Of a stretch of 64,000 nt of DNA, positions 11,404 through 57,689 are shown one piece after another. The stretch comes from Candidatus Pacearchaeota archaeon (GTDB lineage Archaea; Nanobdellota; Nanobdellia; Pacearchaeales; GW2011-AR1). The notes below the pieces were generated by a model. The model was not told the origin of the DNA and did not search any database. It saw only the letters and a list, made by a program, of their open reading frames with translations. Position 1 is the first letter of the stretch. Every line of letters starts with the position of its first letter. The position numbers and the translations under genes were made by a program. The stretch is from the NCBI GenBank assembly GCA_041648455.1, contig JBAZOZ010000001.1:7823-71822 (forward strand). Reading direction: 5' to 3'.

Positions 11404-11523
11404 ATGAAACAAAAATTAAGAATAAAGAAAATACAGAAATCGAAGATTTCTGTCCTTACAAAACAAGAAGTTTTGAAAGTAGGGAATTCTCTAATTCTCA
11501 TTTTTGGGAAACATAAAAAATGA
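11404..11523 (+). other. lysine-rich mini-ORF / intergenic repeat unit (39 codons); stop overlaps downstream start (ATGA)
   Basis: MKQKLRIKKIQKSKISVLTKQEVLKVGNSLILIFGKHKK. Shares the CCTTACAAAACAAGAAGTTTTGAAAGTAGG module with copies near 44430 and 44550. Confidence 0.4.
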
Positions 11524-23429: not shown

Positions 23430-24113
23430 ATGATTGAATCAAAAAAAGAATACATCGTCATCCCGGCATACAACGAAGAAAAGAGTTTGGGGAAAGTTGT
23501 AGATGATTTAAGAAAAAATAAATTTGAAAATATAATCGTTGTTAATGATGGTTCTATAGACAATACATTTGAAGTTGCCAAGAACAAAAAAGTAAAGATA
23601 TATTCTCATATAATTAATCGCGGTTTGGGAGGAGCATTGAATACCGGAATTTCAGCAGCACTAATGAACCATGCAGATATTATTGCAACTTGCGACGCTG
23701 ATGGGCAGCACGACCCAATGGATGTTAAAAGAGCTATAGAATTTTTAAAAAAAGAAAATTTAGATGTTGTTATTGGTTCAAGGCTAATAAACTCAAAAGG
23801 AATGCCCATATCAAGAAGAATTATTAATTCTGGCGCTAGTTTTGTTACTCAATTATTATTTGGAATTTATTCAACAGACACCCAATCTGGATTGAGAGTT
23901 TTTACTAAAGAAGCTGCAGAAAAGATAATAATAAAAACAAATAAAATGGAAGTCTCGTCGGAGATTATTAAAGAAATAGGAAGGAATAAATTAAAATTTA
24001 AAGAAATTCCTATAAAAGCTATATACACTGATTATTCTATAGAAAAAGGCCAAAGAGGATTAAATGCTTTTAACATTGCATACAAACTTATGTTAAGGAA
24101 AATTATGAAATGA
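23430..24113 (+). CDS. GT2 polyprenol-phosphate glycosyltransferase (DPM1/GtrB-like)
   Basis: YIVIPAYNEEKSLGKVVDDL...IIVVNDGSIDNT...TCDADGQHDP is typical of dolichyl-phosphate mannose/glucose synthases. Confidence 0.8.
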   Translation: MIESKKEYIVIPAYNEEKSLGKVVDDLRKNKFENIIVVNDGSIDNTFEVAKNKKVKIYSHIINRGLGGALNTGISAALMNHADIIATCDADGQHDPMDVKRAIEFLKKENLDVVIGSRLINSKGMPISRRIINSGASFVTQLLFGIYSTDTQSGLRVFTKEAAEKIIIKTNKMEVSSEIIKEIGRNKLKFKEIPIKAIYTDYSIEKGQRGLNAFNIAYKLMLRKIMK

Positions 24114-24135
24114 AAAATTTTCAATTTTTCAATCA

Positions 24136-24180
24136 TTTAAACACTCACGCGACACGGCGTCACAGGAACGTGTTCAAATA
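24136..24180 (+). promoter_or_regulatory. palindromic box TTTAAACAC-N7-ACACGGCGTCAC-N5-CGTGTTCAAATA ending 2 nt before the ATG (copy 1 of 3)
   Basis: Near-identical copies at 39218..39261 and 40253..40297. Inner inverted repeat ACACGG/CCGTGT. TTTAAA could serve as a TATA box. Confidence 0.5.
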
Positions 24181-24182
24181 AA

Positions 24183-24506
24183 ATGATAATTCAATGGGTA
24201 ATCTTAATTTTAGTACTTTTTATGTATTTCAAACTTTTAATGGATTTGAAAAAAGGGAGAATTTCCTTGAGAAGATTTTTCTTTTGGTTGTTTATCTGGA
24301 CAGGACTTTCGTTAATTACATATTTTCCTCAAATAGTTTTCTTTTTTTCTAATTTAATTGGTATTGAAAGAGCCAAGGATTTGCCTATTTATGTTTCTAT
24401 AATTTTATTATTTTATCTATTATTCAAAATAAGTATAAGAATAGAAGAAATTGAACAGGGAATAACTAAAATAGTTAAAAAGATTGCGCTGGGAGTTAAG
24501 GAATGA
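24183..24506 (+). CDS. DUF2304-family small membrane protein (GtrA-like partner of DPM1-type GT2)
   Basis: 107 aa with 3 TM helices. Immediately downstream of the GT2. The hydrophobic pattern WVILILVLFMYFKLLMDLKKGRISLRRFFFWLFIW fits the family. Confidence 0.45.
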   Translation: MIIQWVILILVLFMYFKLLMDLKKGRISLRRFFFWLFIWTGLSLITYFPQIVFFFSNLIGIERAKDLPIYVSIILLFYLLFKISIRIEEIEQGITKIVKKIALGVKE

Positions 24507-24712
24507 AAATACAAAAATTAAAAATTTTTACCCTTCCACATGGAAAACAAGAAATTTTAGAAGAAATAAGAATTTTTTTACCACTTATGGAAAATAAGAA
24601 AAACAGAAAAGTTTTTCATCTCTCCAAATCAAGAAGATTTGAAGATAAGAAATTTTCTGTCCCATTCAAAATAGGAAATTTTGAAGACAAACATAGGAGA
24701 TGTTCGAGATGA
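24503..24712 (+). other. 69-codon mini-ORF / intergenic repeat element (paralogous to 57374..57505)
   Basis: MKIQKLKIFTLPHGKQEILEE... The first 45 nt are almost identical to 57374-57418. ATGA overlaps at both ends (24503/24506 and 24709/24712). Confidence 0.4.
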
Positions 24713-33055: not shown

Positions 33056-33598
33056 ATGAGGGAGAATTTAGACATGGTAAATAAAATAATGAGACTTGGA
33101 AAATTAGAAATTGATTTAAAAGAATTATCTAAATTTTTAGTCGGGGCTAAAAAAAATTGCTATGCTGGAAATGGTGAAGAAAAAAGATTATCTGATGGTT
33201 CAAAAATCTTAACTTTTCAAGAAGGAAATTTTCATTATGAAGATAATTATGATGGCTTTTATCAAGCTCCTGGAAGAGAATTGGTAAGATGGAAAAACGA
33301 AAACGGGCAGAGAATCTGGCAAATGTCTTATTGTGGAGGAATGAATCCAGAATATTTTAGAAACAAAAAATTTAGTGAAGATGTTTTTAGATTTTTGAAA
33401 ATCGCGCTGGGACGAGTTAGTGAAGAGATGCCTTTTAGAGGACCAGAACAATATGAATGGAATATAAATGGGTGGAATTATAGTTCCAATATAATTGGTG
33501 ATGTAAAAAGATTTATAGGTAATGAATTTATAAAAGCACCATCTGAAGATATTTTATTTTCATTAGACTTTATTGGGGGTTTATTTACTCCAAAATGA
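33056..33598 (+). CDS. hypothetical protein
   Basis: 180 aa, soluble. The stop overlaps the start of the following mini-ORF (ATGA). Confidence 0.4.
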   Translation: MRENLDMVNKIMRLGKLEIDLKELSKFLVGAKKNCYAGNGEEKRLSDGSKILTFQEGNFHYEDNYDGFYQAPGRELVRWKNENGQRIWQMSYCGGMNPEYFRNKKFSEDVFRFLKIALGRVSEEMPFRGPEQYEWNINGWNYSSNIIGDVKRFIGNEFIKAPSEDILFSLDFIGGLFTPK

Positions 33599-33648
33599 AA
33601 AAAACAAAAAGTTTTTTGCCTTTTCAAAATAGGAAGTTTTTAAGATGA
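33595..33648 (+). other. 17-codon lysine-rich mini-ORF / repeat unit ([17 protein letters not shown]), ATGA-coupled on both sides
   Basis: Near-identical copies at 39081 and 43967. TGA at 33646 overlaps the ABC ATPase ATG at 33645. Confidence 0.4.
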
Positions 33649-36907: not shown

Positions 36908-37216
36908 ATGGAAGAAAGGACAACAATTCAAGGAAAATTAGAATTAAAAATTCGTGGAGAAGGTGTTTGTGGAGAATTGGAATTAACTTATATGCCCATT
37001 GAAAATATAGAAGGAGCACAAAATATTAATTGTACAATGAAAACAACAATAAATGCAAGAGATTATTTGAGTTTAGCAAAAGATGTAAATAATATAGTTA
37101 GAGGGTTTGGATGTTCTGTTGGATTAAGGAATACAAAATATGATTTACAGGTAGTAGGGGATAAAAAAGAATTTGAGCAAGAAGATATAGATTATATTGC
37201 GGAGTTAATAAAATGA
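36908..37216 (+). CDS. small soluble protein encoded between the two permease genes
   Basis: 102 aa. Both ends overlap the flanking permease genes. Confidence 0.35.
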   Translation: MEERTTIQGKLELKIRGEGVCGELELTYMPIENIEGAQNINCTMKTTINARDYLSLAKDVNNIVRGFGCSVGLRNTKYDLQVVGDKKEFEQEDIDYIAELIK

Positions 37217-38424
37217 TCTCCGATTATTTTAAAATTGCAATAAAAAATTTGAAACAAAGAAAACTTAGAAGTTGGTTGACTATGTTGGGAATTTTTATTT
37301 CGATTGCAACAATATTTACTTTGATAAGTTTGTCTCTTGGTTTGCAAGGCGCGATTAATGAACAATTCCAAATTTTAGGTGTGGATAAATTTTTTATTAT
37401 GCCGAAAGGACAATTAGGTGCGCCTGGAACTGGCGGGGCTGTTGAATTAACATTAAAAGATGTAAATGTCGTCGAGAAGACTTCTGGAGTCAAGGACGTT
37501 ACTTATGCTACTGTAGCAAATGCAAAAGTCGAATTTAATAAACAAACAAGATATATGATGGTTGTTGGACTTCCCACAGATAAAATAGAATTATTTAAAG
37601 AATCTACCAGTCTAAAGATTGAAGATGGAAAATTTATTGAAAAAAGTGTAACAGGAAAAATTGTTTTAGGATATGATTACAAATATGGAAATATTTTTGG
37701 AAAACCCATTATTGTTGGAGAAATCATTTTAATTAACGGACAGAAATTTAGAGTGATTGGAATCTTAGGACAAATTGGGAATCCCCAGGACGATAAAAAT
37801 ATTTATATGTCAATTGACGATGTGAAATCTGTATTTAATACCAGAGATAGAATTGATGAAATAATTATTCAAATAAATTATGGAGAAAATATTAAAGATG
37901 TTGCAAACAAAGTTGAAGATAAATTAAGAAAATCGCGAGGTGTGACTGAAAAAACGCAAGACTTCAGTGTTTTAACCCCGGAAGAACTTTTACAAAGTTT
38001 TGGAAATATTCTTACAATAATCACTGCCTTTTTAGGGGGAATTGCGGCAATATCTTTAATTGTCGGGGGAGTTGGAATCACAAACACAATGTATACTTCA
38101 GTTATAGAAAGAACAAAAGAAATTGGAATTATGAAAGCGATTGGTGCAAAAAATAAAGATATTTTATGGATTTTTTTAATTGAATCTGGTTTGCTCGGAC
38201 TTGCTGGAGCAATTATTGGTGTTGTCTTGGGTTATGGATTAAGTAATGGAATAGTATATATTGTAACTAATTTATATAATACAAATTTATTACAAGCAGC
38301 GGCACCGATTTATTTAATTGCCGGCTGTTTAGCATTTGGTTTTTTAATTGGCGCAATTTCCGGAGTTTTACCTGCGTGGCAAGCATCAAAAACAAATGTT
38401 GTAGATGCATTGAGATACGAATAG
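37213..38424 (+). CDS. ABC transporter permease, FtsX/MacB family (paralog)
   Basis: The SVIERTKEIGIMKAIGAKNKDILWIFLIESGLLG block is identical to the one in 35689..36906. Confidence 0.85.
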   Translation: MISDYFKIAIKNLKQRKLRSWLTMLGIFISIATIFTLISLSLGLQGAINEQFQILGVDKFFIMPKGQLGAPGTGGAVELTLKDVNVVEKTSGVKDVTYATVANAKVEFNKQTRYMMVVGLPTDKIELFKESTSLKIEDGKFIEKSVTGKIVLGYDYKYGNIFGKPIIVGEIILINGQKFRVIGILGQIGNPQDDKNIYMSIDDVKSVFNTRDRIDEIIIQINYGENIKDVANKVEDKLRKSRGVTEKTQDFSVLTPEELLQSFGNILTIITAFLGGIAAISLIVGGVGITNTMYTSVIERTKEIGIMKAIGAKNKDILWIFLIESGLLGLAGAIIGVVLGYGLSNGIVYIVTNLYNTNLLQAAAPIYLIAGCLAFGFLIGAISGVLPAWQASKTNVVDALRYE

Positions 38425-38512
38425 AATTTTATAATTAAATAAAAAATTATACAAAAATTTAAAAACCAAATTATTTTTACAATTAAACTAACTCTATAAG
38501 GAGATTTTTAAA

Positions 38513-38713
38513 ATGACAAAAAAATGTGTTTATTGTGATTCAGAAGTTCCTGTGGATAGAGCTATGCAAATCTGTGATAGATGTGGGGTTGGAGTTTGGG
38601 GACGTAAACAATGGGAACATATAAAGCAAACAACTAATGAGGCACAAGATAAGGGGGATTTATGCTCAACAAATATGGCTCCTGATTTCTTGAATAAGAA
38701 GTTGATAGAATAA
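38513..38713 (+). CDS. small zinc-ribbon protein
   Basis: CVYCDSEVP...CDRCGV, two CxxC pairs. Confidence 0.35.
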   Translation: MTKKCVYCDSEVPVDRAMQICDRCGVGVWGRKQWEHIKQTTNEAQDKGDLCSTNMAPDFLNKKLIE

Positions 38714-38820
38714 CAAAAGATAGTTTTTTAAATAGAATTTTTCTGGCTTATTTATGGTTATAGAGAATAGTAAATTCTCTATCCCCACAAAATTTAATAA
38801 ACACAGAATAGGAAAATTTT

Positions 38821-39078
38821 ATGGTTCAAAGAAAAAATGTTAGGTCTAGGGGAAAATTGCAATTCAGCAAATATTTCCAAGAATTTGAGAAGGGAGATAG
38901 CGTAGCAATTAATAGAGAAAGATCAATAAATTCAAATTTTCCAAAAAGATTGCAAGGAAGAACTGGAAAAATCGATGGAAAAAAAGGGAGAGTATATATA
39001 ATTAAAATCAAGGATCTTGAAAAAGAAAAAAAATTTTTAATAGAACCTATACATTTAACGAAAATCAAAAATCAATAA
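38821..39078 (+). CDS. rpl21e: 50S ribosomal protein L21e
   Basis: VRSRGKLQFSKYFQEFEKGDSVAI...RLQGRTGKIDGKKGRVYIIKIKD follows the L21e consensus (..R.r..f.r.f...G.....Y...kGD.VdI....HGKTGrV). Confidence 0.85.
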   Translation: MVQRKNVRSRGKLQFSKYFQEFEKGDSVAINRERSINSNFPKRLQGRTGKIDGKKGRVYIIKIKDLEKEKKFLIEPIHLTKIKNQ

Positions 39079-39080
39079 AA

Positions 39081-39134
39081 ATGAAAAAAACAAGAAGTTT
39101 TTTGCCTTTTAAAAACGGGAAGTTTTCAAAATGA
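39081..39134 (+). other. 17-codon mini-ORF / repeat unit (MKKTRSFLPFKNGKFSK)
   Basis: Copy of the 33595 and 43967 units. TGA at 39132 overlaps the next ATG at 39131. Confidence 0.4.
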
Positions 39135-39265
39135 TGAAAATAAGAAATTTTCAAACATGTCAGAAATCCTCACGAAAAGGGATTTCTGAACACCTTCCAA
39201 ATTTTACAATTTGGAAGTTTAAACACTTACGCTACACGGCGTCACGGAACCGTGTTCAAATATGA
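39131..39265 (+). ncRNA. ~135-nt three-hairpin intergenic element (type B); also readable as a 44-codon ORF ending in ATGA with rpoF
   Basis: Hairpins at 39160-39188 (10-bp stem), 39194-39217 (10-bp stem) and 39232-39256. Homologous to 40176..40301 with compensatory base changes. Confidence 0.45.
39218..39261 (+). promoter_or_regulatory. palindromic box TTTAAACAC...ACACGGCGTCAC...CCGTGTTCAAATA (copy 2 of 3), abutting the rpoF ATG
   Basis: Same motif as 24136..24180 and 40253..40297. Confidence 0.5.
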
Positions 39266-39567
39266 TAAAAAATGCTGAGCCAGTGAGCATGGCTGAATCG
39301 CTTGAATATGTCAAGGAAGACAAAGAAGGCAACGCAGAGATAATTGGATTTATAAAAAAATTCACTGCATTAAAATCTAAGGAAGCGAAGGAATTCAGAA
39401 AAAAAATTCAGGATTTAAATTTAATAAAAGTCAAACAAGATTATGTTGTAAAGATAATTGATTTAATGCCTGAAAGTACAGAAGAATTAAATAAAATTTT
39501 TGTCGATGTGAGTTTAGATGAGGATGAGTCAAAAAAAATACTTGAAATTATCAAAGAATTCAAATAA
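39262..39567 (+). CDS. rpoF: DNA-directed RNA polymerase subunit F (Rpo4/Rpb4-like)
   Basis: 101 aa, acidic. Sits in the conserved archaeal neighbourhood L21e-RpoF-DUF655. LSEAK...ELNKI helical pattern. Confidence 0.55.
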   Translation: MIKNAEPVSMAESLEYVKEDKEGNAEIIGFIKKFTALKSKEAKEFRKKIQDLNLIKVKQDYVVKIIDLMPESTEELNKIFVDVSLDEDESKKILEIIKEFK

Positions 39568-39635
39568 TGAAAAAATAGATTTTTTCAATCTATTCAAATT
39601 TAAAAATAGAAATCCAAAATTTAAATATAAAAAAA

Positions 39636-40172
39636 ATGGAAAAAGAAGAATATGCAATAGTGCTAGAATATTTACTAAATGGTTATCCGCTAGAAAGAAA
39701 AATGATGCCCATAGTCCAGGCAATAGGAGAAAAGAATTTGATTCTTCTAGAATTAGTTCCGAGAAAAGGAATTTCTTTAGAAATTGGTGAAAAGGTTTAT
39801 ATAGGAGAAGGTAAGAGAGATAAAATATATTATATCCTTGGAAGACTTCATAGAGAAAAACTCACAGAGCAAGCGAAGGAACAATTACAGGAATTTATTG
39901 CAAAAACAATTAGCGAAAATGAAAAAAAATTTATTGAGTTTTATAACAAATCGGAAGCGATAAATAAGAGAGTTCATCAGATAGAATTGATTCCCGGAAT
40001 GGGTAAAAAACATATGCAAGAAATTATAAAGGAAAGAGAAAATAAGGAATTTGAAAGTTTTGACGAAATGAGAAATAGAATTCCTAATTTGCCCGACCCA
40101 GAAAAAGCAATAGAAAAAAGAATAGTACAAGAACTAATAAATATGGAGAGATTCAATCTTTTTGTAAGATAA
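39636..40172 (+). CDS. DUF655-family HhH nucleic-acid-binding protein
   Basis: EEYAIVLEYLLNGYP...PIVQAIGEKNLILLEL...ELIPGMGKKHMQEIIKERENKEFESFDEMRNRIP matches DUF655 (LDyLp.G......p.vqaiGe..f.lLE...H.LeLLPGIGkK). Confidence 0.75.
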   Translation: MEKEEYAIVLEYLLNGYPLERKMMPIVQAIGEKNLILLELVPRKGISLEIGEKVYIGEGKRDKIYYILGRLHREKLTEQAKEQLQEFIAKTISENEKKFIEFYNKSEAINKRVHQIELIPGMGKKHMQEIIKERENKEFESFDEMRNRIPNLPDPEKAIEKRIVQELINMERFNLFVR

Positions 40173-40175
40173 AAA

Positions 40176-40301
40176 ATGAAAATAAGAAATTTTCAATCAC
40201 GTCAGAAATCCTCTAGATTTCTGAACGCCATCCAAATTGTGAAATTTGGATGTTTAAACACCCACACAACACGGCGTCACAGACCCGTGTTTAAATAAAA
40301 T
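40176..40301 (+). ncRNA. ~126-nt three-hairpin intergenic element (type C), paralog of 39131..39265; also readable as a 40-codon ORF
   Basis: Same first 21 nt (ATGAAAATAAGAAATTTTCAA). Hairpins TCAGAAATC/GATTTCTGA and CATCCAAATT/AATTTGGATG. Confidence 0.45.
40253..40297 (+). promoter_or_regulatory. palindromic box TTTAAACAC...ACACGGCGTCAC...CCGTGTTTAAATA (copy 3 of 3), abutting the rps13 ATG
   Basis: See 24136..24180. Confidence 0.5.
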
Positions 40302-40800
40302 GGAAATAAAAAACCAACTCGTAGAGGCAAGAGAGGATAGGGTAGTTAGAATTATGTCAAAAGATATAGAAGGTAAAATGAGTGTTTATTCTGGATTAGC
40401 AAAAATAAAAGGAATTTCATGGGGTTTTTCAAATGCAATATGTAATTCATTAGGACTTGATAAAAAAAGAAAAATTGGGTTGTTAAGTACAGAAGAAATA
40501 AATAAAATTTCTGAATTTATAAAAAATCCGAAAGTTCCACCATTTTTATTAAATAGAAGAAAAGATTTTCAATCTGGAGAAGACATACACCTAAATGGGA
40601 GCAATCTTGAATTACAACAAGAATTCGATATTAAAAGATTGAAGAAAATAAAAAGTTATCGTGGTTTAAGACACATGAGTAACCTTCCCGTAAGAGGACA
40701 AAGAACAAAAAGTCATTTTAGAAAAAATAGAAGAAAAGGAAGTGGAATTAAAAAGAAAGCGAAGAAAGAAGGAGAGGTAAAAAAATATGAAAAAAATTGA
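40300..40800 (+). CDS. rps13: 30S ribosomal protein S13
   Basis: VVRIMSKDIEGKMSVYSGLAKIKGI...IKSYRGLRHMSNLPVRGQRTKSHFRKNRRKG follows the S13 consensus. Confidence 0.9.
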   Translation: MEIKNQLVEAREDRVVRIMSKDIEGKMSVYSGLAKIKGISWGFSNAICNSLGLDKKRKIGLLSTEEINKISEFIKNPKVPPFLLNRRKDFQSGEDIHLNGSNLELQQEFDIKRLKKIKSYRGLRHMSNLPVRGQRTKSHFRKNRRKGSGIKKKAKKEGEVKKYEKN

Positions 40801-40888
40801 AAATTTTTTGCCTCTTAAACTTGGGAAAAGTTCAAAATACAGAAAATCAGGAAAATTTTCTGTCTCATTAAAAATAGGAAATTTTTAA
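40787..40888 (+). other. 33-codon mini-ORF / repeat unit (MKKIENFLPLKLGKSSK...KIGNF) between rps13 and rps4
   Basis: Starts inside the last codons of rps13 (+1 frame). Ends 1 nt before the rps4 ATG. Confidence 0.35.
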
Positions 40889-40889
40889 G

Positions 40890-41369
40890 ATGAAAAGAAA
40901 GCATAAATTATATTCTAGGCCGAAAAGACCTTTTGATAAAAAAAGAATTGAAGAAGAGGCAAAGATAAAGGAAGAATTTGGCCTAAAAAATAAAAAGGAA
41001 ATTTGGAAAACCGAGGCTAAAGTAAAATTAATAAGAGAAAGAGCGAAAAGAATTATACATACAAATCAAGATGAACAAAAAAGTTTTTTTAATAGATTAA
41101 ATAAAATCGGAATAAAGGCAAATTCAATTGCAGATGTTTTATCCTTAGATAAAAAAGATTATCTAAAAAGAAGGTTACAGACAATTGTGTTTAGAAGGAA
41201 ATTAGCAAATACAATAAAACACGCAAGACAGATGATTGTTCACAAAAATGTTTTAGTTGATGGAAGAGTGATTAATTCTCCTTCTTATATTGTTCCAATT
41301 GAATTAGAAAACAAAATAAATTTAAAAAAGAAAAACAAAAAAATAAATTCTGAGGAAATTAAAAAATAA
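40890..41369 (+). CDS. rps4: 30S ribosomal protein S4
   Basis: MKRKHKLYSRPKRPFDKKRIEEE... with S4 domain (LDKKDYLKRRLQTIVFRRKLANTIKHARQMIVHKNVLVDGRVINSPSYIV). Confidence 0.85.
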   Translation: MKRKHKLYSRPKRPFDKKRIEEEAKIKEEFGLKNKKEIWKTEAKVKLIRERAKRIIHTNQDEQKSFFNRLNKIGIKANSIADVLSLDKKDYLKRRLQTIVFRRKLANTIKHARQMIVHKNVLVDGRVINSPSYIVPIELENKINLKKKNKKINSEEIKK

Positions 41370-41370
41370 A

Positions 41371-41793
41371 ATGGATGAAGAAGATAAGATAGAAAATGAA
41401 GCAATAAAGAAGAAAAAGAAAGATATTGAAGCAATAGTGCATATTTATACATCATTTAATAATACAATTGCCCATGTTACAGATATGTCGGGTAAAACAA
41501 TTGCGAAAGTTACGGGAGGGCAAATCACAAAGCATGACAGATTAAAAGCTAATCCAACAATTGCTATGTTTATTGCAAAAAGAATTTCAGAGATTATAAA
41601 AGAATCTGGAATTAATTCATTGTATGTTAGAATTAGAGCGAAGACAGGAAATCCTGCTCCCGGACCTGGCGCTCATGCAATAGTAAAAAGTTTGTCGAGA
41701 GAGGGATTTAAAATTTTGAATATATCTGACACAACTCGAATGAAGCGTGGGGGGCCAAAGAAAAAAGGGGGTAGAAGAGGCAGAAGACCATAA
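41371..41793 (+). CDS. rps11: 30S ribosomal protein S11
   Basis: AIVHIYTSFNNTIAHVTDMSG...ALYVRIRAKTGNPAPGPGAHAIVKSLSREGFKI follows the S11 consensus. Confidence 0.9.
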   Translation: MDEEDKIENEAIKKKKKDIEAIVHIYTSFNNTIAHVTDMSGKTIAKVTGGQITKHDRLKANPTIAMFIAKRISEIIKESGINSLYVRIRAKTGNPAPGPGAHAIVKSLSREGFKILNISDTTRMKRGGPKKKGGRRGRRP

Positions 41794-41823
41794 GTTTAAG
41801 AATAAAGATTAATAAAAATTAAA

Positions 41824-42111
41824 ATGGATAAAAATCAAAGGAAAATTGTTGAAGGACTAACATTATTAGTTGATATAAATTTAAATGAAGTTGAGCTCGT
41901 GCTTAAAAAATATTTTAAAGACATCCCTATTTGCGAGGATGGACCAAATATCTCTGAATTATATCTAGCATCAGAAGTATTAAATGTTATTGATGGTGTT
42001 TCATACTTTCCAAAAATGGAAAGAGAAAGGTTAAATAAAAGATATTGTGATTTATCTGACAATGCTCATCAAAAACATATTCGAAGTGTTCGTATGGAGG
42101 TTACTGCTTAA
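41824..42111 (+). CDS. hypothetical 95-aa protein inserted between rps11 and rpoD
   Basis: ORF with good coding periodicity. No recognisable motif. Confidence 0.35.
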   Translation: MDKNQRKIVEGLTLLVDINLNEVELVLKKYFKDIPICEDGPNISELYLASEVLNVIDGVSYFPKMERERLNKRYCDLSDNAHQKHIRSVRMEVTA

Positions 42112-42117
42112 ATTACA

Positions 42118-42822
42118 ATGAAACTAATAAATAAAAAAAATAATCAAATTGTTTTCAGGGCAGAAATTGGAGAGACAATAGCTAACTCTATAAGAAGATA
42201 TCTAAATGAAATTCCTATTCTTGCAGTTGACGAAGTTGAAATTTTCAAGAACGATTCTCCACTTTACGATGAAACTATTGCCCATAGAATTGGTTTTATT
42301 CCATTAAAAATGGAAAAAGCATCTAAAGAAGAAAATTTAAAATTAGTCTCCAAAAAAGAGGGGATTGTTTATTCCGGAGAAATGCATGGAGCAATAAAAC
42401 CAGTTTATGACAAGATACCAATAACTTCATTAAATAAAGGACAAGAAATGGAAATTATCGCAAATACCAAATTTGGAAAGGGGAAAGAACATTCAAAATT
42501 TTCTCCGGGATTAATGTTTTACAGAAATGTTTTGGAGATAAAAATGGATAAGAATTTCCAAGATAAAATAAAAAGAGTTTGTCAGAATTCAGAGATTAAG
42601 GAAAAAGGAGACAAGATAATTATTATTGATGATAAAGAAAAAGAGATTTGTGATGTTTGCGAGGGTATTTGTGAAAAAGTTGGAAAGAAAGCAGAAGTAG
42701 AAATTAAAGATGAATTGATAATCACACTGGAATCTTTTGGACAATTGAGTGTTGAAGAAATTTTTAAGAAAGCTGTTGATGAATTGAAGAAAGACCTTTC
42801 CGATATTTCTAAAAAGATATAA
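42118..42822 (+). CDS. rpoD: DNA-directed RNA polymerase subunit D (Rpo3/Rpb3)
   Basis: ANSIRRYLNEIPILAVDEVEIFKNDSPLYDETIAHRIGFIPLK matches the RpoD dimerisation domain. Cys-rich insert (CDVCEGICEK). Confidence 0.85.
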   Translation: MKLINKKNNQIVFRAEIGETIANSIRRYLNEIPILAVDEVEIFKNDSPLYDETIAHRIGFIPLKMEKASKEENLKLVSKKEGIVYSGEMHGAIKPVYDKIPITSLNKGQEMEIIANTKFGKGKEHSKFSPGLMFYRNVLEIKMDKNFQDKIKRVCQNSEIKEKGDKIIIIDDKEKEICDVCEGICEKVGKKAEVEIKDELIITLESFGQLSVEEIFKKAVDELKKDLSDISKKI

Positions 42823-42886
42823 AAGATAGTTCTAAAGAAATTGAAGTTATGAAAAGATTATTAAATAAGATTTTATTAGATTAATT

Positions 42887-43123
42887 ATGAATTTTAAACT
42901 AACATTGTGGAAAAGTATTGTTTCTTTAATTATAGGATTAATTGTAGATTTTTGGGTTAACTTTTATACTATCTGTCTAACAATAGTTGGACCTGCTGTT
43001 GGAAAAGGTAAATGCTCAACTACTTTTGAAGCAATGTCTAGTGTATCTGGAATAATCATAGTTATTATTGTATCTATAATCATTTATTTTATCTGGAGCT
43101 TATTTGAAAAGAAGAGAAAATGA
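42887..43123 (+). CDS. small 2-TM membrane protein (paralog 1 of tandem pair)
   Basis: MNFKLTLWKSIVSLIIGLIV...IWSLFEKKRK. Stop overlaps the next start. Confidence 0.4.
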   Translation: MNFKLTLWKSIVSLIIGLIVDFWVNFYTICLTIVGPAVGKGKCSTTFEAMSSVSGIIIVIIVSIIIYFIWSLFEKKRK

Positions 43124-43350
43124 ACTTTAAACCGACATTGTGGAAGAGTGTTGTTTCTACATTGATTGGATTTATTGCTAAAATATTATTCATTTTTATT
43201 TATACTATTTCATCAGTTAAAGGTGCTGTAGAGCATAATTCTTTAATTTATAAATTAGGGGTATATGATGTCAAATTTCCAGAAATTTTTATAATTACAA
43301 TTGCATTAATAGTTTATATCATCTGGAGTTTATTTCAAAAGAAAAAGTAA
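43120..43350 (+). CDS. small 2-TM membrane protein (paralog 2 of tandem pair)
   Basis: MNFKPTLWKSVVSTLIGFIA...IWSLFQKKK. About 45% identical to the preceding ORF. Confidence 0.4.
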   Translation: MNFKPTLWKSVVSTLIGFIAKILFIFIYTISSVKGAVEHNSLIYKLGVYDVKFPEIFIITIALIVYIIWSLFQKKK

Positions 43351-43405
43351 TCCCATCTAATAGAAGGTTTTTTAAGATATTTATTTCTTGTATTTTTGTT
43401 GTTTA

Positions 43406-43489
43406 GGCGGGCGTGCCGGAGTGGTCAAACGGAGCAGACTCAAAATCTGTTAGCTTAGTGCTTGCGAAGGTTCGAATCCTTTCGCCCGC
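43406..43489 (+). tRNA. tRNA-Leu (anticodon CAA)
   Basis: GCGGGCGTGCCGGAGTGGTCAAACGGAGCAGACTCAAAATCTGT...GGTTCGAATCCTTTCGCCCGCA. Loop CUCAAAA. Long variable arm. Confidence 0.85.
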
Positions 43490-43601
43490 ATTTTTATTTC
43501 ATCATTTTAAAAACGAAGATTTTATAAACCATTTTCCTCTTGAATTTTTATCTGCGAGTTAACGCGTTCAGCAGAGAAAAATATTTCTCTGTTTATTTAA
43601 A

Positions 43602-43970
43602 ATGAAATCAAAAACCAGAATAGAAAAACAAACAAAAAGAAAAACAAATCCCAATTTAGTTGAAACTATTAGAAATGCTAGAAAAAATAAAAAATGGCTA
43701 GAAGTGGCTGGTTTGCTTTCCAATTCAAGAAAAAAAAGGGCAGAAATTAATTTGGACAGAATAAATAAGGAAGCAAAAGAAGGAGATATTGTTGTCGTTC
43801 CGGGAAAAGTTTTGTCTCAAGGGGAATTAACTAAAAAAATAAAGATTATAGCATTTGGTTTTTCAGAAAATGCAAGGGAAAAGATATTAAAATCAAAAAG
43901 TGAATTAAATTATATCTATGACGAAATTAAGAAAAATCCAGAAGCGAAAGGAGTTAAGATTTTAAAATGA
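43602..43970 (+). CDS. rpl18e: 50S ribosomal protein L18e
   Basis: KTNPNLVETIRNARKNKKWLEVAGLLSNSRKKRAEINLDRIN...VVVPGKVLSQGEL matches L18e. Confidence 0.85.
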   Translation: MKSKTRIEKQTKRKTNPNLVETIRNARKNKKWLEVAGLLSNSRKKRAEINLDRINKEAKEGDIVVVPGKVLSQGELTKKIKIIAFGFSENAREKILKSKSELNYIYDEIKKNPEAKGVKILK

Positions 43971-44020
43971 AAAAAACAAGAAATTTTTCACTTTTTCAAA
44001 ATAGGAAATTTTTAAAATGA
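43967..44020 (+). other. 17-codon mini-ORF / repeat unit (MKKTRNFSLFQNRKFLK) bridging rpl18e and rpl13 by two ATGA overlaps
   Basis: ATG at 43967 overlaps the rpl18e TGA. TGA at 44018 overlaps the rpl13 ATG at 44017. Confidence 0.4.
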
Positions 44021-44406
44021 AAATAATTGATGGAACAAATGCTATATTGGGAAGGCTTGCGAGTTATGCTGCGAAAGAGGCGCTAAAGGGTGAAGAATTA
44101 GTAATCTTAAATTGTGAGAAAATTATAATCACAGGAAATAAAAAAAATATTGAGAAAGAATTTCAGGAAAAACGAGATCGTGTGGGTAGTGGACAGAAAG
44201 GACCGAAAATTTCAAGATCATCGGATAAGATTGTTAAAAGAACCATAAGGGGCATGGTTGCACATAGATATAAAAGAGGTAAAGATGCACTAAAAAAAAT
44301 AAGATGTTATGTTGGAGTCCCAAAAGAATTTGAAAACCAGAAAAAAATAATAGCTGGAAAAGAAAAACCAATTAAATTTATTAGTGTAGAAGGCATTTCA
44401 AAATGA
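44017..44406 (+). CDS. rpl13: 50S ribosomal protein L13
   Basis: MKIIDGTNAILGRLASYAAKEALKGEELVILNCEKIIITG...KRTIRGMVAHRYKRGKDALKKIRCYVGVP matches the L13 consensus. Confidence 0.9.
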   Translation: MKIIDGTNAILGRLASYAAKEALKGEELVILNCEKIIITGNKKNIEKEFQEKRDRVGSGQKGPKISRSSDKIVKRTIRGMVAHRYKRGKDALKKIRCYVGVPKEFENQKKIIAGKEKPIKFISVEGISK

Positions 44407-44504
44407 AAAAAATACAAAAATCAGAGATTTTTGTCCTTACAAAACAGGAAATTTTGAAAGTAGGAAATTTTTTACCTTTTAAACTTAGGAAAAATTCAAA
44501 ATGA
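44403..44504 (+). other. 33-codon mini-ORF / repeat unit (MKKIQKSEIFVLTKQEILKVGNFLPFKLRKNSK)
   Basis: ATG overlaps the rpl13 TGA. Its TGA overlaps the next mini-ORF ATG at 44501. Confidence 0.4.
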
Positions 44505-44602
44505 AAAAAACAAAAAGTTTTTTATCTTTTACAGAAATTTCTAATTTCTGTTCTTACAAAACAAGAAGTTTTGAAAGTAAAAACAGGAAGTTTTCAAAAT
44601 GA
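44501..44602 (+). other. 33-codon mini-ORF / repeat unit (MKKTKSFLSFTEISNFCSYKTRSFESKNRKFSK)
   Basis: TGA at 44600 overlaps the rps9 ATG at 44599. Confidence 0.4.
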
Positions 44603-45003
44603 ATGAAAAAATATTTACTTCTGGGAAAAGAAAAACTGCTGTTGCAAGGGCGAGAATTTTAGAAGGTAGTGGAAAAATTAAAATAAATAACAAAAACTAT
44701 TTATCTCTTCAAAAATTTGATAGGCTGAAGATAGAAGAACCGATAAGAATTGCGGAAAGAGTTCTTGGAAAAAAGAATTTTGATGTTTTCATAAATGTGC
44801 GTGGTGGTGGAGAAAAAAGCCAGATTGAGGCTGCTAGATTGGCTTTGGCTAGGGCAATATTAAAATATACAAATAACGACAAATTAAGAGATGCTTATAA
44901 CGATTACGATTGGTCTTTATTGGTAGCTGATGTAAGAAGAAAAGAGCCTTACAAGCCCGGAGATTCTAAAGCAAGAAGTAAAAGGCAGACGAGTTATAGA
45001 TAA
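44599..45003 (+). CDS. rps9: 30S ribosomal protein S9
   Basis: FTSGKRKTAVARARILEGSGKIKINN...RRKEPYKPGDSKARSKRQTSYR. The S9 C-terminus ends in the conserved basic tail. Confidence 0.9.
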   Translation: MNEKIFTSGKRKTAVARARILEGSGKIKINNKNYLSLQKFDRLKIEEPIRIAERVLGKKNFDVFINVRGGGEKSQIEAARLALARAILKYTNNDKLRDAYNDYDWSLLVADVRRKEPYKPGDSKARSKRQTSYR

Positions 45004-45310
45004 TTAAGAATTTTTCTTGATATAGTAAAGTAAACCCTGAAACTTAACATAAAAGACTATCTTAAAATATAACTCAATCATCGGAAAATTAAATGAATAA
45101 TAAATTACTATTTTCCAATAATTTCGCTACTCCTATCGTCGCAAATTGATAAAATTAAACTAATGATAAAAACATCGCCGATAATTATAATTAAAAGTTG
45201 TTTCTTCAATTATCAATCTAAAAAATATTACGAGTGAAGACGAGTGTAAAATGTTAAGTTATGAACTTGACTTAACAAATAGCAAAGTTATTAAATAATA
45301 TTTTAGTTAG

Positions 45311-49604: not shown

Positions 49605-50534
49605 ATGTATCAACAAATTATCCCATCTAAATTTAATAATCAAATGGAAGAGCAGTTAATTAAACTTTTCCATGAGTCTGATTTACCATTACATTTTAAC
49701 AAAACTGGAAATAAGGAATTTACAAATTATCAAAGAGTTTCTTTAATCATTTTATTTCACCGAAGCAAAAAATCAATTAGGGATTTTATCGACGAGGTTT
49801 CCGAATCAAAATGGATTTCTTATCTCGGATTGAAGAAAATTCCAAAGAAAAGCACCTTGCATGATTGGTTGAAAATTTTCGACTTGAAAATAATAAGAGA
49901 AATTTGCAAGGTGCTTTTGCCGACAGAGATTAAAGTAACTGCAATCGATGGAACCGGATTTGATTCATGGCAAAGGTCGAGGCATTATGAAAAAAGAGCT
50001 GAAGAAATAAAACCTCTTCCTAAGATGCCTTATTTTAAAACATGCCTTTTTATCGACGTGGGAACAAAATCAATAATTGATTTTGAAATTGTTCTGCATC
50101 ATGAACATGATGTAAAAATGGCGGAGAGAATTTTTAAAAGAAATAAACTAGAAAATATTTGGGGGTTGGGAGATAAGGGTTTTGATTCTGAAAATTTGCA
50201 CGAAATTGCTCGTGCAAATGGAATTATATTTTATGCTCCAGTTCGAAGGATGAATAAAAGAGCATTAAGCAAAAAGAAACCAAAAGGAAAATACCGACGA
50301 GAATGTATCGAAGTTCCAGATTTTGCTGGGAAAAGAAGTTTAGTTGAAAATGTGAATTCTGTTTTAAAAAGAACGCAAATTCATTTTCTAAGAAGCAAGA
50401 AAGACATTATGAAAGAAAGAGAATTTGGCTGGCAAATTGTTTTATATAATATTAAAAGAAAAATAAAAGTTTCATCTTTAGGAAAAATTCAAACTTTTAT
50501 TTTTTGGAAATTTAGAATTTTATTTCATTCCTGA
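49605..50534 (+). CDS. DDE-type transposase (IS4/IS5-superfamily-like)
   Basis: VTAIDGTGFDS (D1), GLGDKGFDSENL (D2) and the downstream ...NSVLKRTQ region give DDE_Tnp_1-like spacing. Confidence 0.6.
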   Translation: MYQQIIPSKFNNQMEEQLIKLFHESDLPLHFNKTGNKEFTNYQRVSLIILFHRSKKSIRDFIDEVSESKWISYLGLKKIPKKSTLHDWLKIFDLKIIREICKVLLPTEIKVTAIDGTGFDSWQRSRHYEKRAEEIKPLPKMPYFKTCLFIDVGTKSIIDFEIVLHHEHDVKMAERIFKRNKLENIWGLGDKGFDSENLHEIARANGIIFYAPVRRMNKRALSKKKPKGKYRRECIEVPDFAGKRSLVENVNSVLKRTQIHFLRSKKDIMKEREFGWQIVLYNIKRKIKVSSLGKIQTFIFWKFRILFHS

Positions 50535-52101: not shown

Positions 52102-52887
52102 TTAAATATCTTTTAAATGTAATATTGTTTGCAAAGAAGCTATTTTTTTAAGATTTTTGGAAATGGAAAGACGAATATTTTTGTTGTTTATCTTGCTTTT
52201 TTCGAGGGGAATTTCTTTTTTCAGCAATCTTCCAACATAATCCCTAATAGAACTTTCAGTTAGGTTTAATTTATCTGAGATAGATTTATAGTCGGCAAAC
52301 CCGTGCTCTTCTTCTAGCTGATATATTGTCGAGAAGATTAATAACTCTTGATCGGTTAATTTTTTGAATTTTAATCTAATTTCCTTCTTTAAGGTATCTA
52401 AAGAATCCAAGAGGTTATAGGCATTTTCTATTGAATTTTCTTTATTGTGCGAACCTTTATTTATTGATTTGTTTGTCTGTTGGTCTGTCTGTCTGTCTGT
52501 TGGAACCCTTTCATTTCCAGTGGAAATATCTAAAATTTGTCCTTTTAAAGAGCTAATATCTGCTGGATGTGCTGGAATTATCTGTTGATGTGCTGGAATT
52601 ATCTGTTGATGTGCTGGAATTATCTGTTGATGTGCTGGAATTCCTTCTATTTGGAAAATTGGCCTATTTGGAGAATATAATTGTTTTTTATCTTGTTTTA
52701 ACTCTTCAAGAATTTTTAGAAGATTTGAATTGACTTCTGCTAATTGCTTGATTAATTCTATGATCTCTGACATCTTCTCTCTTGTTTCAATAATGGCATT
52801 CTCAAACAAATTGTTCTCTTTTTTTAAATAGTCAATATCTTGCTTAATTTTTTGAAATGCCTCTTTCAGTTGATCTTCTTTCTCCAT
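52102..52887 (-). CDS. coiled-coil / tandem-repeat / C-terminal winged-helix protein (paralogous architecture to 51311..51958)
   Basis: N-terminal coiled coil. (IPAHQQ)x4 from a perfect 21-nt repeat. TDRQTDQQT from a CTGT-rich repeat. C-terminal LTDQELLIFSTIYQLEEEHGFADYKSISDKLNLTESSIRDYVGRLLKK is wHTH-like. Confidence 0.5.
   Translation of the reverse strand: MEKEDQLKEAFQKIKQDIDYLKKENNLFENAIIETREKMSEIIELIKQLAEVNSNLLKILEELKQDKKQLYSPNRPIFQIEGIPAHQQIIPAHQQIIPAHQQIIPAHPADISSLKGQILDISTGNERVPTDRQTDQQTNKSINKGSHNKENSIENAYNLLDSLDTLKKEIRLKFKKLTDQELLIFSTIYQLEEEHGFADYKSISDKLNLTESSIRDYVGRLLKKEIPLEKSKINNKNIRLSISKNLKKIASLQTILHLKDI
52561..52645 (+). repeat. perfect 21-nt tandem repeat (GATGTGCTGGAATTATCTGTT) x4 inside CDS
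   Basis: Read directly from the sequence. Confidence 0.85.
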
Positions 52888-55811: not shown

Positions 55812-57377
55812 ATGGATTCAGAAGAAATATTCAAATTTTGTTTGGAAAATGGACTCTTAGTGGACAAAGAAGTTTTAAAATTGTTCAGTGAATCAGGGGA
55901 CATAGAATCGGCTAAATTAATTATCCGAAAAATTAAAAATCATACTCAACAAAAAATAATTACAAAAAATCTTTTTTATGAAAATAAAGACAAGGTTAAT
56001 CAATTCTTTGATGATCTTCCAGAAGAAAATAGAAAAGGTTTAGAAAAATTAAAAATCAAACTTGGGTTGAGTATAGAAATTTCACGTGAAATTTCTACGA
56101 CGGAAATAAAAAAAGATGTTCAAGAAAATATAGATGGTTCTGTTAGGATCACTACAATGAATCAAAGTTTTAGCAAGAAAATTGAAGTTTCGGATTTTGT
56201 CAAATACTTTAGGGGGCGACTAAATGAAATGAAAAGTTATTTGCAGGAAAATTCTCAATTAGATGGACTCACTTCCATAAATAAAATTTCCGGAGAAAAA
56301 CAAAATTTTTCAATTATAGGGTTAGTTTATGAAAAAAGAATTACTAAAAATAAAAACATCTTGTTAGATATAGAAGATTTGACTGGAAGGGTTAAGGTTC
56401 TTATAAGTCAAAATAAAGAAGATCTTTACAAAAAGGCAGAAGATATAACTCTTGATGCGGTTTTAGGTTTTAAGGGAAGTGGGAACAGGGAAATTATCTT
56501 TGCAAATGAAATTGTTTTTCCTGATTCAATAATTCAAGAGAGAAAAAAATCTCCATTCGAAGAATATGCTTTATTTACAGGAGATTTGCACATTGGCAGT
56601 AAATTATTCATGAAAGAAAATTTTTTGAAATTTATCGATTATCTTAATGGAAAAATTCTCGATACACCTGAAGTTTCTAAAATTAAATATCTATTTATCG
56701 TTGGGGATTTGATTGCTGGTGTTGGGATTTATCCCGGGCAGGAAGAGGATTTAGAATTTCCAGATATTGAAAGACAATTTGAAGAAGCAGCAAGGATTTT
56801 GAGTAAAATAAGAAAAGATATTAAAATAATTATTTCTCCAGGCAATCACGATGCATTGAGAATTATGGAACCCCAGCCACTTTTCGACGAGAAATACGCC
56901 TGGCCACTTTATGAATTGGAAAATGTAGTTCTGACGGGAAATCCGGTTTCAGTCAATATTGGCGCCAGAAAAGGATTTAATGGATTTAATGTTTTGACTT
57001 ATCATGGTTATTCTTATCATTATTATGCAAATGTTATTCCTAAATTAATTATAGAAAAATCTGTTCATACTCCGGAAAAAATCATGGCTTATCTTTTGAA
57101 ATATCGTCATTTAGCACCTACACATTCTTCTACATTATATTTTCCTTCTGAAGAAGATCAGTTTATTATCAGAGATATTCCAGATATTTTTGTTTCTGGA
57201 CACACCCATAAAAGTGCCGTGACATATTACAATAATATTTTGATAATTTCAAGTTCCAGCTGGGAAAGTTTGACTCCCTTTCAGGAGAAGATGGGGAATC
57301 AGCCAGATTTTTGCAAGGTTCCGATGTTTAATCTTAAAACCAGGGGAATTAAGGTTTTGGATTTTGAGGGAGAATGA
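55812..57377 (+). CDS. DNA polymerase II (PolD) small subunit DP1
   Basis: Calcineurin-like phosphoesterase motifs GDLHIG, VGDLIAG, PGNHD and GHTH. 521 aa. Confidence 0.9.
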   Translation: MDSEEIFKFCLENGLLVDKEVLKLFSESGDIESAKLIIRKIKNHTQQKIITKNLFYENKDKVNQFFDDLPEENRKGLEKLKIKLGLSIEISREISTTEIKKDVQENIDGSVRITTMNQSFSKKIEVSDFVKYFRGRLNEMKSYLQENSQLDGLTSINKISGEKQNFSIIGLVYEKRITKNKNILLDIEDLTGRVKVLISQNKEDLYKKAEDITLDAVLGFKGSGNREIIFANEIVFPDSIIQERKKSPFEEYALFTGDLHIGSKLFMKENFLKFIDYLNGKILDTPEVSKIKYLFIVGDLIAGVGIYPGQEEDLEFPDIERQFEEAARILSKIRKDIKIIISPGNHDALRIMEPQPLFDEKYAWPLYELENVVLTGNPVSVNIGARKGFNGFNVLTYHGYSYHYYANVIPKLIIEKSVHTPEKIMAYLLKYRHLAPTHSSTLYFPSEEDQFIIRDIPDIFVSGHTHKSAVTYYNNILIISSSSWESLTPFQEKMGNQPDFCKVPMFNLKTRGIKVLDFEGE

Positions 57378-57505
57378 AAATACAAAAATTAAAAATTTTT
57401 GTTCTTCCACATGGAAAAGATGAAAATCAAGAATTTTCATTCTTACAAAACAAGAAATTTTGTAAGCAAAAAATTTTCCATGCCATTCAAAACAAGAAGT
57501 TTTGA
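57374..57505 (+). other. 43-codon mini-ORF / repeat element (MKIQKLKIFVLPHGK...), paralog of 24503..24712
   Basis: ATG overlaps the DP1 TGA. First 45 nt nearly identical to 24503-24547. Confidence 0.4.
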
Positions 57506-57689
57506 AGGAAATAAGAAGTTTTAGAAGAAATAAGAAATTTTTTATACATCAAAAATTGTTTTTTGCGTAAACTCCCAGTTTTAACTCGTGAGAAAGCAAA
57601 AACAATTTTTGGGATGTTCAAGAACTCGAGACACGCCCCGGAATTTATTCCGAGGGTTCTTGACATTTCCAAATCAAGAAAATTTGAAA

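Follow-up and report, generated by a model that had tools for sequence, protein, structure and literature searches.

Why are the gene junctions of a normally compact archaeal ribosomal-protein operon filled with chains of short, lysine-rich open reading frames (ORFs)? The question is raised by a 64,000-nt stretch of DNA (the window; contig JBAZOZ010000001.1, positions 7,823 to 71,822) from a Candidatus Pacearchaeota metagenome-assembled genome (MAG) of the DPANN archaea, which has a G+C content of about 29% and contains many A and T runs. An earlier note on this DNA had listed eleven such mini-ORFs (17-69 codons) and had proposed that they represent a proliferating element similar to transposable elements of the miniature inverted-repeat type (MITEs), a device for ribosome re-initiation, or leader peptides. 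All eleven ORFs are present at the starts given for them, and a further copy of 23 codons, located upstream of a DUF2304 gene, had been missed. We put at about 0.6 the probability that the spacers holding these ORFs are lineage-specific, non-autonomous, modular hairpin repeats, which have been kept where termination-reinitiation relays translation across them.

Inserts of 46-210 nt are located at 10 gene junctions of the window, eight of which are bridged by 17-69-codon ORFs. They consist of 50-nt and 98-nt units and of composites of up to approximately 200 nt, all placed on the + strand within + strand gene clusters, and they account for roughly 2% of the window, as estimated from spacer lengths. 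The flanking genes were identified by Pfam as those of L18e, L13, S9, L21e, Rpb4, DUF655, S13, S4, an ABC ATPase, GT4, DUF2304, a radical SAM protein and DP1. Genes of ribosomal proteins and of an RNA polymerase subunit, which are usually highly expressed, are among those lying downstream of the elements.

Comparison with related genomes revealed that these spacers are insertions. Close relatives were recovered through homologues of the L13 protein, namely locus L001 (L13 80% identical) and loci L004 and L005 (L13 85% identical). In all three, the L18e and L13 genes are joined by a direct ATGA overlap, and at this junction the window carries an exact 50-nt insert at the stop/start overlap, with the direct repeat TTTTAAAATGAAAA on both flanks. 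The L13 and S9 genes overlap by ATGA in L004 and L005 and are 18 nt apart in L001; the junction alignment places two 98-nt inserts here in the window. When the same operon was examined in up to ten genomes, the spacers of adjacent gene pairs ranged from -20 to 338 nt, with a different pattern in each genome. Empty ATGA junctions are found in L001-L005 and L054, and filled ones in the window, L061 and L105. At the L13/S9 junction the window, L105 and L054 each have an element of their own, different from the other two, while the L18e/L13 junction is occupied in the window and in the more distant L061 and is empty in closer relatives. This patchy occupancy points to rapid gain or loss of the elements, which recurs at sites of one kind. 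The family thus accounts for the long and variable spacers of otherwise compact ribosomal-protein operons.

The repeat unit that emerges from this analysis is a hairpin with covarying stems, and not the peptide; the shared DNA cores that the earlier note had recognized are real. The core AAAAYARGAARTTTT occurs 15 times on the + strand of the window and never on the - strand (0.06 copies expected from shuffles), and all 15 copies are located inside the mini-ORF spacers; a BLASTN census within the window detected no substantial copies outside them. Each module has 22-27 nt and is composed of a stem, in which N3-AAAA-Y is paired with R-TTTT-N3', and a loop of the sequence A(A/G)GAA. The flanks of the stem covary, as in CAGAAAAC-AAGAA-GTTTTCTG, TTCAAAAC-AAGAA-GTTTTGAA, TGGAAAAT-AAGAA-ATTTTCCA and TTAAAAAC-AGGAA-GTTTTTAA. 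When 129 distinct copies of the core, taken from the window and from other genomes, were aligned, 80.4% of the cells of the 9-bp stem were paired (68.4% after shuffling), and the covariation score of 0.282 (0.116 when shuffled) was reached in none of 500 shuffles, with slid controls giving at most 0.12. Between 2 and about 8 modules are arrayed in each insert, the commonest array being a two-hairpin unit of 54 nt (ATGAAAAAAAYARGAARTTTTTTGCCTYNNAAAAAYAGGAARTTTTNAARATGA).

Some features of the loops deserve separate mention. Among the 129 aligned hairpins, 38 have their loop closed by C-G, 37 by U-A, 51 by C-A and only 3 by U-G, so that U-G closing is avoided far more than C-A, the opposite of what a sense-strand RNA helix predicts. 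At approximately 3030-3064 of locus L013 the loop is reverse-complemented within an unchanged stem and flanks (TTGGAAAAT-TTCTT-ATTTTCCAA), and at approximately 2030-2055 of locus L029 CAGAAAAC stands on the gene strand with the loop TTCCT; both composites are otherwise sense-oriented. Judged from their sequences, these reversals look like hairpin-mediated loop inversion at the DNA level.

A second kind of module (type 2) adds hairpins containing G and C and a stem formed by TTTAAACAC...GTGTTYAAA. The type-2 composite that precedes rpoF contains, in this order, one core hairpin, two longer hairpins and a TTTAAACAC...GTGTTCAAA stem around ACACGGCGTCAC. The spacer between the L21e gene and rpoF folds far better than its shuffled versions (z = -4.47), and type-2 copies contain a TTTAAAC box. 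The type-2 stem is located directly upstream of DUF2304, rpoF and S13 genes, and its DUF2304 copy is orthologous in the window and in locus L051. The type-2 element may be a promoter or leader element. At gathering score, Rfam 15 recognized tRNAs and 5S rRNA alone in the whole window and left the elements unmatched; with a relaxed E-value, region 38400-45100 yielded only sub-threshold matches (E > 0.2) overlapping or adjoining the elements. The composite at 39131 was also considered as a C/D-box sRNA (ATGATGA ... CTGA), a candidate that was rejected as the paralogous copy at 40176 has no C box.

The family is not confined to the window. It was found at more than 100 loci in other DPANN MAGs and in groundwater metagenomes. 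A scan of species-representative genomes with a two-core pattern gave 46 loci, some 39 of which belong to DPANN MAGs (bearing the labels Woesearchaeota, Nanoarchaeota, Pacearchaeota or GW2011_AR19), with up to approximately 20 loci in a single MAG, while a scan of metagenomes with a start-module pattern gave 83 stretches, many of them from Hainich groundwater, whose H43/H51 0.1-um fractions contain dozens of copies. Units that are nearly identical recur at loci unrelated to each other, and assemblies made independently from several sites contain them. The elements also keep their orientation, since 55 of 85 clusters precede an ORF of the same strand, coincide with its N-terminus or fall within it, and two fall within an ORF of the opposite strand (28 were unclassified). 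Seven bacterial matches of the genome scan were set aside as probable chance matches or unrelated tandem repeats, and two identical single-core matches in viral contigs, apparently coding sequence, lacked the element structure. The family is thus dispersed over many DPANN genomes, and its ATGA phasing recurs in them.

The elements are tied to start codons at both ends. At the 3' end, the last hairpin stops a fixed 4 nt before the ATG of the host gene, and its loop is AGGAA in 63 of 67 cases (104 of 192 in other modules; Fisher p = 3e-10), with AGGA ending 10 nt before the ATG in 50 of 67 last hairpins. This AGGA is a putative Shine-Dalgarno (SD)-like motif displayed in the loop. At the 5' end, start modules mostly begin with ATG, and of the 85 mini-ORF ATGs, 41 overlap with or directly adjoin the stop codon of a long frame upstream (in 23 cases as ATGA on its TGA). 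Among 37 other starts, which have no element before them, 14 show a TTTA[AT]A box that begins between -33 and -26, compared with none of the 42 coupled starts. Ordinary first genes in the window have their promoter box 28-30 nt upstream. As the two spacings agree, the ATG of a non-coupled mini-ORF is placed like that of a leaderless gene, which suggests that it occupies the position of a leaderless start. The chains of ATGA junctions described in the earlier note are thus real at operon junctions, and elements occur at promoter-proximal starts as well. The end module contains a TATA-like stretch of its own (TTTTAAAA), which was rejected as a promoter: it lies 23-24 nt from the ATG, compared with 28-30 nt for ordinary promoters, and is therefore too close to give a leaderless mRNA of the downstream gene.

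The mini-ORFs were followed from 87 distinct start-module ATGs. Forty-six lead through at least one mini-ORF to an ORF of 60 aa or longer, a further 10 are in-frame fusions and 12 leave the contig with the chain intact. ATGA is present at 40 of 53 chain junctions, and only 12% of control short ORFs initiated by ATGA form such chains; overall, a mini-ORF enters the host gene in 56-68 of the 87 cases, mostly by ATGA overlap. Spacer by spacer, chance was estimated with dinucleotide shuffles: five long spacers (69-202 nt) that are bridged in the window were bridged in 0.2-4% of their shuffles, and in the four longest of these, 92-100% of trial 1-nt indels destroyed the chain. In the 17-codon ORFs it is the length phase and the terminal ATGs that are informative, and not the absence of stop codons; avoidance of stops in such an ORF alone is weak evidence (a substitution simulation, which assumed a star phylogeny, gave 0.78 per unit and a product of 5e-5). 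Measured from ATG to ATG, two-hairpin units have 50 nt in 23 cases and otherwise 47, 53, 51 (6 cases), 48 or 45 nt. Lengths of 49 and 52 nt were never seen in this small sample, and thus the phase that would send ribosomes out of the frame of the gene is missing.

These observations can be combined into the following proposal. Arrays of modules would be copied into the genome right at start codons, after which the host ATG(A) would stand at both ends of the insert. The old ATG would keep its context, either on the stop codon of the upstream gene of the operon or about 28 nt past a TATA-like box, and would now open a mini-ORF extending across the whole insert. The last hairpin would offer AGGA 10 nt before the new ATG, the stop codon of the mini-ORF would lie in the ATGA of the host gene, and ribosomes would be relayed over the insert by termination-reinitiation. 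In archaea, ATGA overlaps give strict termination-reinitiation coupling (Huber et al. 2019; PMC6728339), which is almost abolished by a gap of approximately 20 nt (Huber et al. 2023; PMC10666635). Coupled ORFs are co-directional, with stop and start codons that overlap by 4 or 1 nt or are a few nt apart (PMC10666635). Because coupling needs near-overlap, an insert of 50-200 nt at such a junction, or one that separates a promoter from a leaderless start, should silence the downstream gene unless it is translated up to the ATG of that gene, and the elements have precisely this form; with the relay, expression of an essential downstream gene would survive an insertion that otherwise breaks coupling. 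We infer that the mini-ORFs are translated and that selection for the relay keeps them open. Short AAAATGA(AAA) repeats may have allowed the elements to spread by recombination or template switching, or some enzyme may have been responsible. In this form, two proposals of the earlier note, a proliferating repeat with its own initiation context and a re-initiation device, are supported when taken together, as indicated by the empty sites, the dispersed family and the AGGA loop.

Several findings weigh against the hairpin-repeat and relay reading. Taken singly, the junctions fit loss in the relatives as well as gain in the window. As RNA at 37 C, the two-hairpin unit has hardly any stability (z = +0.77), the 5' ATG is absent from some copies (L044 and L050, for example, have ATA), and about 19 of the 87 chains break. 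Two of the 10 window spacers are unbridged, and the chain that starts at 57374, behind the DP1 gene, does not reach its next gene: the ORF ends at 57505, 83 nt short of the next ORF start (57588), while hairpin modules continue to about 57545. The ORF signal is due in part to composition and shared descent, since the modules are intrinsically stop-poor, each being open in two of three frames, and the 46-nt spacers remain open in 50-60% of shuffles. As regards mobility, the elements have no terminal inverted repeats (the longest match is 4-6 nt and consists of an A/T run only), no clear target-site duplication beyond ATGA, and no partner transposase in the form of a multi-copy ORF cluster among the 677 ORFs of the recovered loci.

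The ends of the elements carry direct repeats of 5-16 nt, variable in length and always containing ATG, which fit microhomology-mediated copying as well as target duplication. Pfam identified one DDE transposase and one XerC-like integrase among the larger ORFs of the window. The DDE transposase is an unlikely mobilizer of the family, as its flanks are unrelated to the hairpin modules; TTGTGCAC(A/T)TAGGTTA is found near its gene (at about 49301, 50595 and 50950) and is likewise unrelated to them. The designation "MITE-like" is consequently acceptable only in a loose sense, as terminal inverted repeats are lacking and no partner transposase was found among the ORFs examined. Archaeal non-autonomous elements that are comparable in some respects are the palindrome-associated transposable elements (PATEs) of Haloquadratum, derived from IS200/IS605, which are defined by hairpins rather than by terminal inverted repeats, are strand-specific, and insert beside a short target without classical duplication. 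The DPANN elements differ from PATEs in that no TnpA/TnpB partner was seen in the examined ORFs, in their much smaller size, and in their target, which would be the start codon.

A stronger version of the proposal regards the elements as start-codon-homing mobile elements of archaea, i.e. self-contained cassettes (start codon, hairpins, SD-like loop motif and stop-start overlap) which actively target AAAATGA-type start sites and would be expression-neutral through the relay. The hairpins would perhaps be handled as single-stranded DNA by some enzyme, and such elements would have evolved independently of the comparable mycobacterial repeats described below and would reshape the ribosomal-protein operons of DPANN archaea. 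We advance this only tentatively and hold it to be possible, with the odds against it. We consider it unlikely that the elements are host-beneficial translation cassettes, a natural "bicistronic design" that standardizes or boosts downstream initiation and has spread by aiding expression and not as selfish DNA that is tolerated. The strong enrichment and fixed position of AGGA in the last hairpin speak for such cassettes, as do the placement of elements ahead of highly expressed genes, the native solo end hairpin at the S13/S4 junction of L001, and an architecture like that of engineered bicistronic designs and of ribosome-"delivering" upstream ORFs (uORFs) (PMC12548453). However, the patchy occupancy in close relatives has the look of recent gain or loss and not of a conserved need, these relatives manage with a direct ATGA overlap, and the internal modules (up to 8 per spacer) would be useless for this function. 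The hairpins could also be cis-acting RNA or DNA signals (a protein site, a signal for RNase processing or stability, or pieces of promoters and terminators), with the ORFs as a by-product of stop-poor A/T runs. That the conserved unit is a hairpin with a purine loop and not a peptide agrees with this explanation, and so do the fold of the L21e-rpoF spacer, the strictly sense orientation, the TTTAAAC box and the precedent of elements of this kind in bacterial operons, namely sequences of the repetitive extragenic palindromic (REP) type and bacterial interspersed mosaic elements (BIMEs) (PMC3184786). It leaves unexplained, however, why the 5'-edge ATG is located exactly on the upstream stop or at leaderless TATA distance, and why there are length classes and long in-phase composites of differing module order; the distance of the end-module TATA-like stretch from the ATG is wrong for a promoter, and Rfam provides no match. 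We regard a cis-acting role of this kind as decidedly improbable.

The two remaining explanations concern the ORFs themselves. Functional lysine-rich micropeptides or leader peptides would explain why peptide strings such as MKKTRSFLPFKNRKFLK recur in many genomes. Substitutions at codon positions 1/2/3, however, number 75/113/42, the third position thus being the least variable, and the reading frame of a module differs between copies: one module gives HSKQEVLK in L040 and PFKTRSFE in L013, with the type-2 element read in two frames and the core in all three frames within single ORFs. Similarity of the peptides therefore follows from similarity of the DNA. Since third positions vary least and the frames differ, the peptides appear to be neither conserved nor under selection, and the leader-peptide proposal of the earlier note is highly improbable. 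Chance or artefact, i.e. AT-rich low-complexity spacers in which local slippage or misassembly produced ATGA-phased ORFs, may draw on the base composition of the window and on the 46-nt spacers, which are open in more than half of the shuffles. It is effectively refuted by the excess of core copies over expectation, their presence in independent assemblies and the covariation of the stems.

The arrangement itself is not new, contrary to what the earlier note supposed. Mycobacterial interspersed repetitive units (MIRUs; Supply et al. 1997, as reviewed in PMC12548453 and PMC3184786) are repeats of 40-100 bp in intergenic regions of operons, which are oriented like the flanking genes, sometimes in tandem, and contain an internal ORF overlapping the neighbouring stop and start codons by -4 nt (PMC12548453, PMC3184786). 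Relatives show filled and empty sites, with tetranucleotide direct repeats at the ends (PMC3184786), and MIRUs have been interpreted as mobile elements whose insertion at start codons affects expression only minimally (PMC12548453, PMC3184786). The DPANN elements share all of this architecture: size and orientation, the overlapping internal ORF, and filled and empty sites with end repeats. MIRUs, compared here by description, are elements of Actinobacteria whose internal inverted repeats are G-C-rich (PMC3184786), whereas the DPANN units are very AT-rich. Common descent is unlikely because of the archaeal host and the AT-rich sequence, and we do not assign the DPANN elements to the MIRU family. 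They further differ from MIRUs in their short hairpin module with an A(A/G)GAA loop, the SD-like last loop and the apparently leaderless promoter-proximal starts. The searched literature (subscription journals were outside its scope) yielded no description of such elements from DPANN archaea or from any others, and the DPANN family is apparently undescribed so far.

Other known systems resemble the elements in part. Rickettsia palindromic elements (RPEs; PMC10969869) are also small palindromes tolerated by keeping frames open, for which the 10 in-frame N-terminal fusions among the 87 DPANN cases offer a parallel; RPEs, however, have approximately 150 bp, are located inside coding regions and add a peptide segment, whereas the DPANN copies are mostly separate intergenic mini-cistrons with an unconserved peptide. 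REP and BIME elements (PMC3184786, PMC3733652) are stem-loop palindromes of 20-40 nt arrayed between operon genes, comparable to the modules of 22-27 nt described here. REPs have G-C-rich stems and a GTAG/CGTC tag, are associated with RAYT transposases, follow stop codons and are untranslated; the DPANN modules have A-U stems and are located at start codons, the GTAG or CGTC tag is absent from the 129 aligned modules (which start with A-runs), and no RAYT-like repeated ORF was detected among the 677 ORFs of the recovered loci. As in archaeal termination-reinitiation, every chain junction is a -4 overlap or a gap not exceeding 5 nt, and an SD-like motif often lies upstream of it; known archaeal coupling joins two real genes, whereas in the DPANN chains one of the two ORFs is a mini-ORF that a repeat has brought in. 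Engineered bicistronic designs and leaderless uORFs (Shell et al. 2015, in PMC12548453) likewise have a short leader cistron, which contains an SD-like motif and whose stop codon overlaps the start of the gene of interest; these are synthetic or limited to a single locus, whereas the DPANN elements form a dispersed family.

If the proposal is correct, the DPANN family would represent an independent, cross-domain case of the MIRU principle, in which (semi-)selfish DNA is made harmless by termination-reinitiation, and it would support stop/start overlaps and leaderless starts as real functional constraints in uncultured archaea. In annotation, gene callers will place starts wrongly, extending N-termini through in-frame copies, or will predict small proteins that are spurious. 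Whether a given junction is filled or empty could be used as a strain marker, comparable to typing by MIRUs as variable-number tandem repeats (MIRU-VNTR) in mycobacteria.

The coordinates of the elements and of the genes discussed are listed in the table. ATGA at both ends, which the earlier note had ascribed to nine of its ORFs, was found in six (33595, 39131, 43967, 44403, 44501 and 24503); the overlap is missing at the 5' end of the ORFs at 39081 and 11404 and at the 3' end of that at 57374. The 1-nt gaps reported for 40176 and 40787 are present, both ORFs ending 1 nt before the next ATG.

Table. Elements, mini-ORFs and selected genes (coordinates refer to the window unless a locus is named)
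Feature	Position	Strand	Remarks
Composite, 39-codon mini-ORF	11404..11523	+	ATGA on GT4 glycosyltransferase; starts 27 nt past methyltransferase stop
Short type-2 copy, 23-codon ORF	24110..24181	+	ATGA on GT2 stop; ends TAA-A-ATG of DUF2304
Composite, 69-codon mini-ORF	24503..24712	+	ATGA on DUF2304 stop; ATGA at 24709
54-nt two-hairpin unit, 17-codon mini-ORF	33595..33648	+	Between DUF5680 protein and ABC ATPase
54-nt two-hairpin unit, 17-codon mini-ORF	39081..39134	+	Begins 2 nt past L21e stop (TAA, 39076-39078)
Type-2 composite, 44-codon mini-ORF	39131..39265	+	Ends with ATGA on rpoF (Rpb4)
Type-2 composite, 40-codon ORF	40176..40298	+	Between DUF655 and S13; gap of 3 nt upstream, 1 nt downstream
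Insertion of ~77 nt near S13 end, 33-codon ORF	40787..40888	+	Ends TAA-G-ATG before S4
Ribosomal protein L18e gene	43602..43970	+	Pfam Ribosomal_L27A/L18; TGA overlapped by ATG of first mini-ORF
54-nt two-hairpin unit (start + end module), 17-codon mini-ORF MKKTRNFSLFQNRKFLK	43967..44020	+	ATGA at both ends
Ribosomal protein L13	44017..44406	+	100% identical to P0001, L13 of Candidatus Pacearchaeota
Composite of ~4 hairpin modules, 33-codon mini-ORF	44403..44504	+	ATGA at both ends
Second composite, 33-codon mini-ORF	44501..44602	+	Last hairpin AAAAC-AGGAA-GTTTT, 4 nt before S9 ATG
Ribosomal protein S9 gene	44599..45003	+	Pfam; direct ATGA overlap with L13 in L004/L005
IS4/IS5-type DDE transposase gene	49605-50534		PF01609
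Composite after DNA polymerase II small subunit (DP1) gene	57374..57545	+	43-codon ORF overlaps DP1 stop
Type-2 repeat	24110-24183, 39131-39262, 40176-40300; L051 7911-7986 (-)		Invariant TTTAAACAC ... ACACGGCGTCAC ... GTGTTYAAA stem

Some of these copies have individual features. The ORF at 40176 is read in a frame different from that of the type-2 copy at 39131. The ORF at 40787 begins 14 nt inside the S13 gene, and its downstream end hairpin is also present in the relative L001. The 3' ATGA of the mini-ORF at 24503 is the second ATG (24709) of the B12/radical-SAM gene.

Variants of the family were observed in other MAGs. In GW2011_AR19 (L026 3014-3070; L045 4885-4935; L049 7620-7700) the hairpin occurs as tandem units of 27 nt (GATACAAAACAGGAAATTTTGCATAAN); because 27 nt equal nine codons, these arrays stay in frame with the downstream ATG and lengthen the N-terminus of the ORF. 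Also in GW2011_AR19, the S13 and S11 ORFs (L045 3762-4355 and 4948-5550) are extended in frame upstream, with a K/E-rich translation, at places where other genomes have spacers or elements; these extensions may be mis-set starts or fixed fusions. The Nanoarchaeota MAG JAHIRT01 (L016, L018, L028, L029 and L007) contains a larger composite repeat, in which an 11-bp long-range stem, ATCAAAAATGC...GCATTTTTGAT, precedes two core hairpins, with an ATG at its beginning and its end just before a gene start.

The window contains further repeated sequences. Immediately upstream of a tRNA-Leu gene (43407-43490) and of the L18e operon are two paralogous, ATGA-joined ORFs encoding hydrophobic proteins of 76-78 aa (42887-43123 and 43120-43350), probably membrane proteins. 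Two tandem paralogous genes of MacB/FtsX-like permeases (35689-36906 and 37213-38424), which share about 70-76% DNA identity over parts of their length, have a 102-aa ORF between them. At 52566-52642, within the coordinates of a minus-strand ORF (52102-52887), a 21-nt sequence (GATGTGCTGGAATTATCTGTT) is perfectly repeated in tandem.

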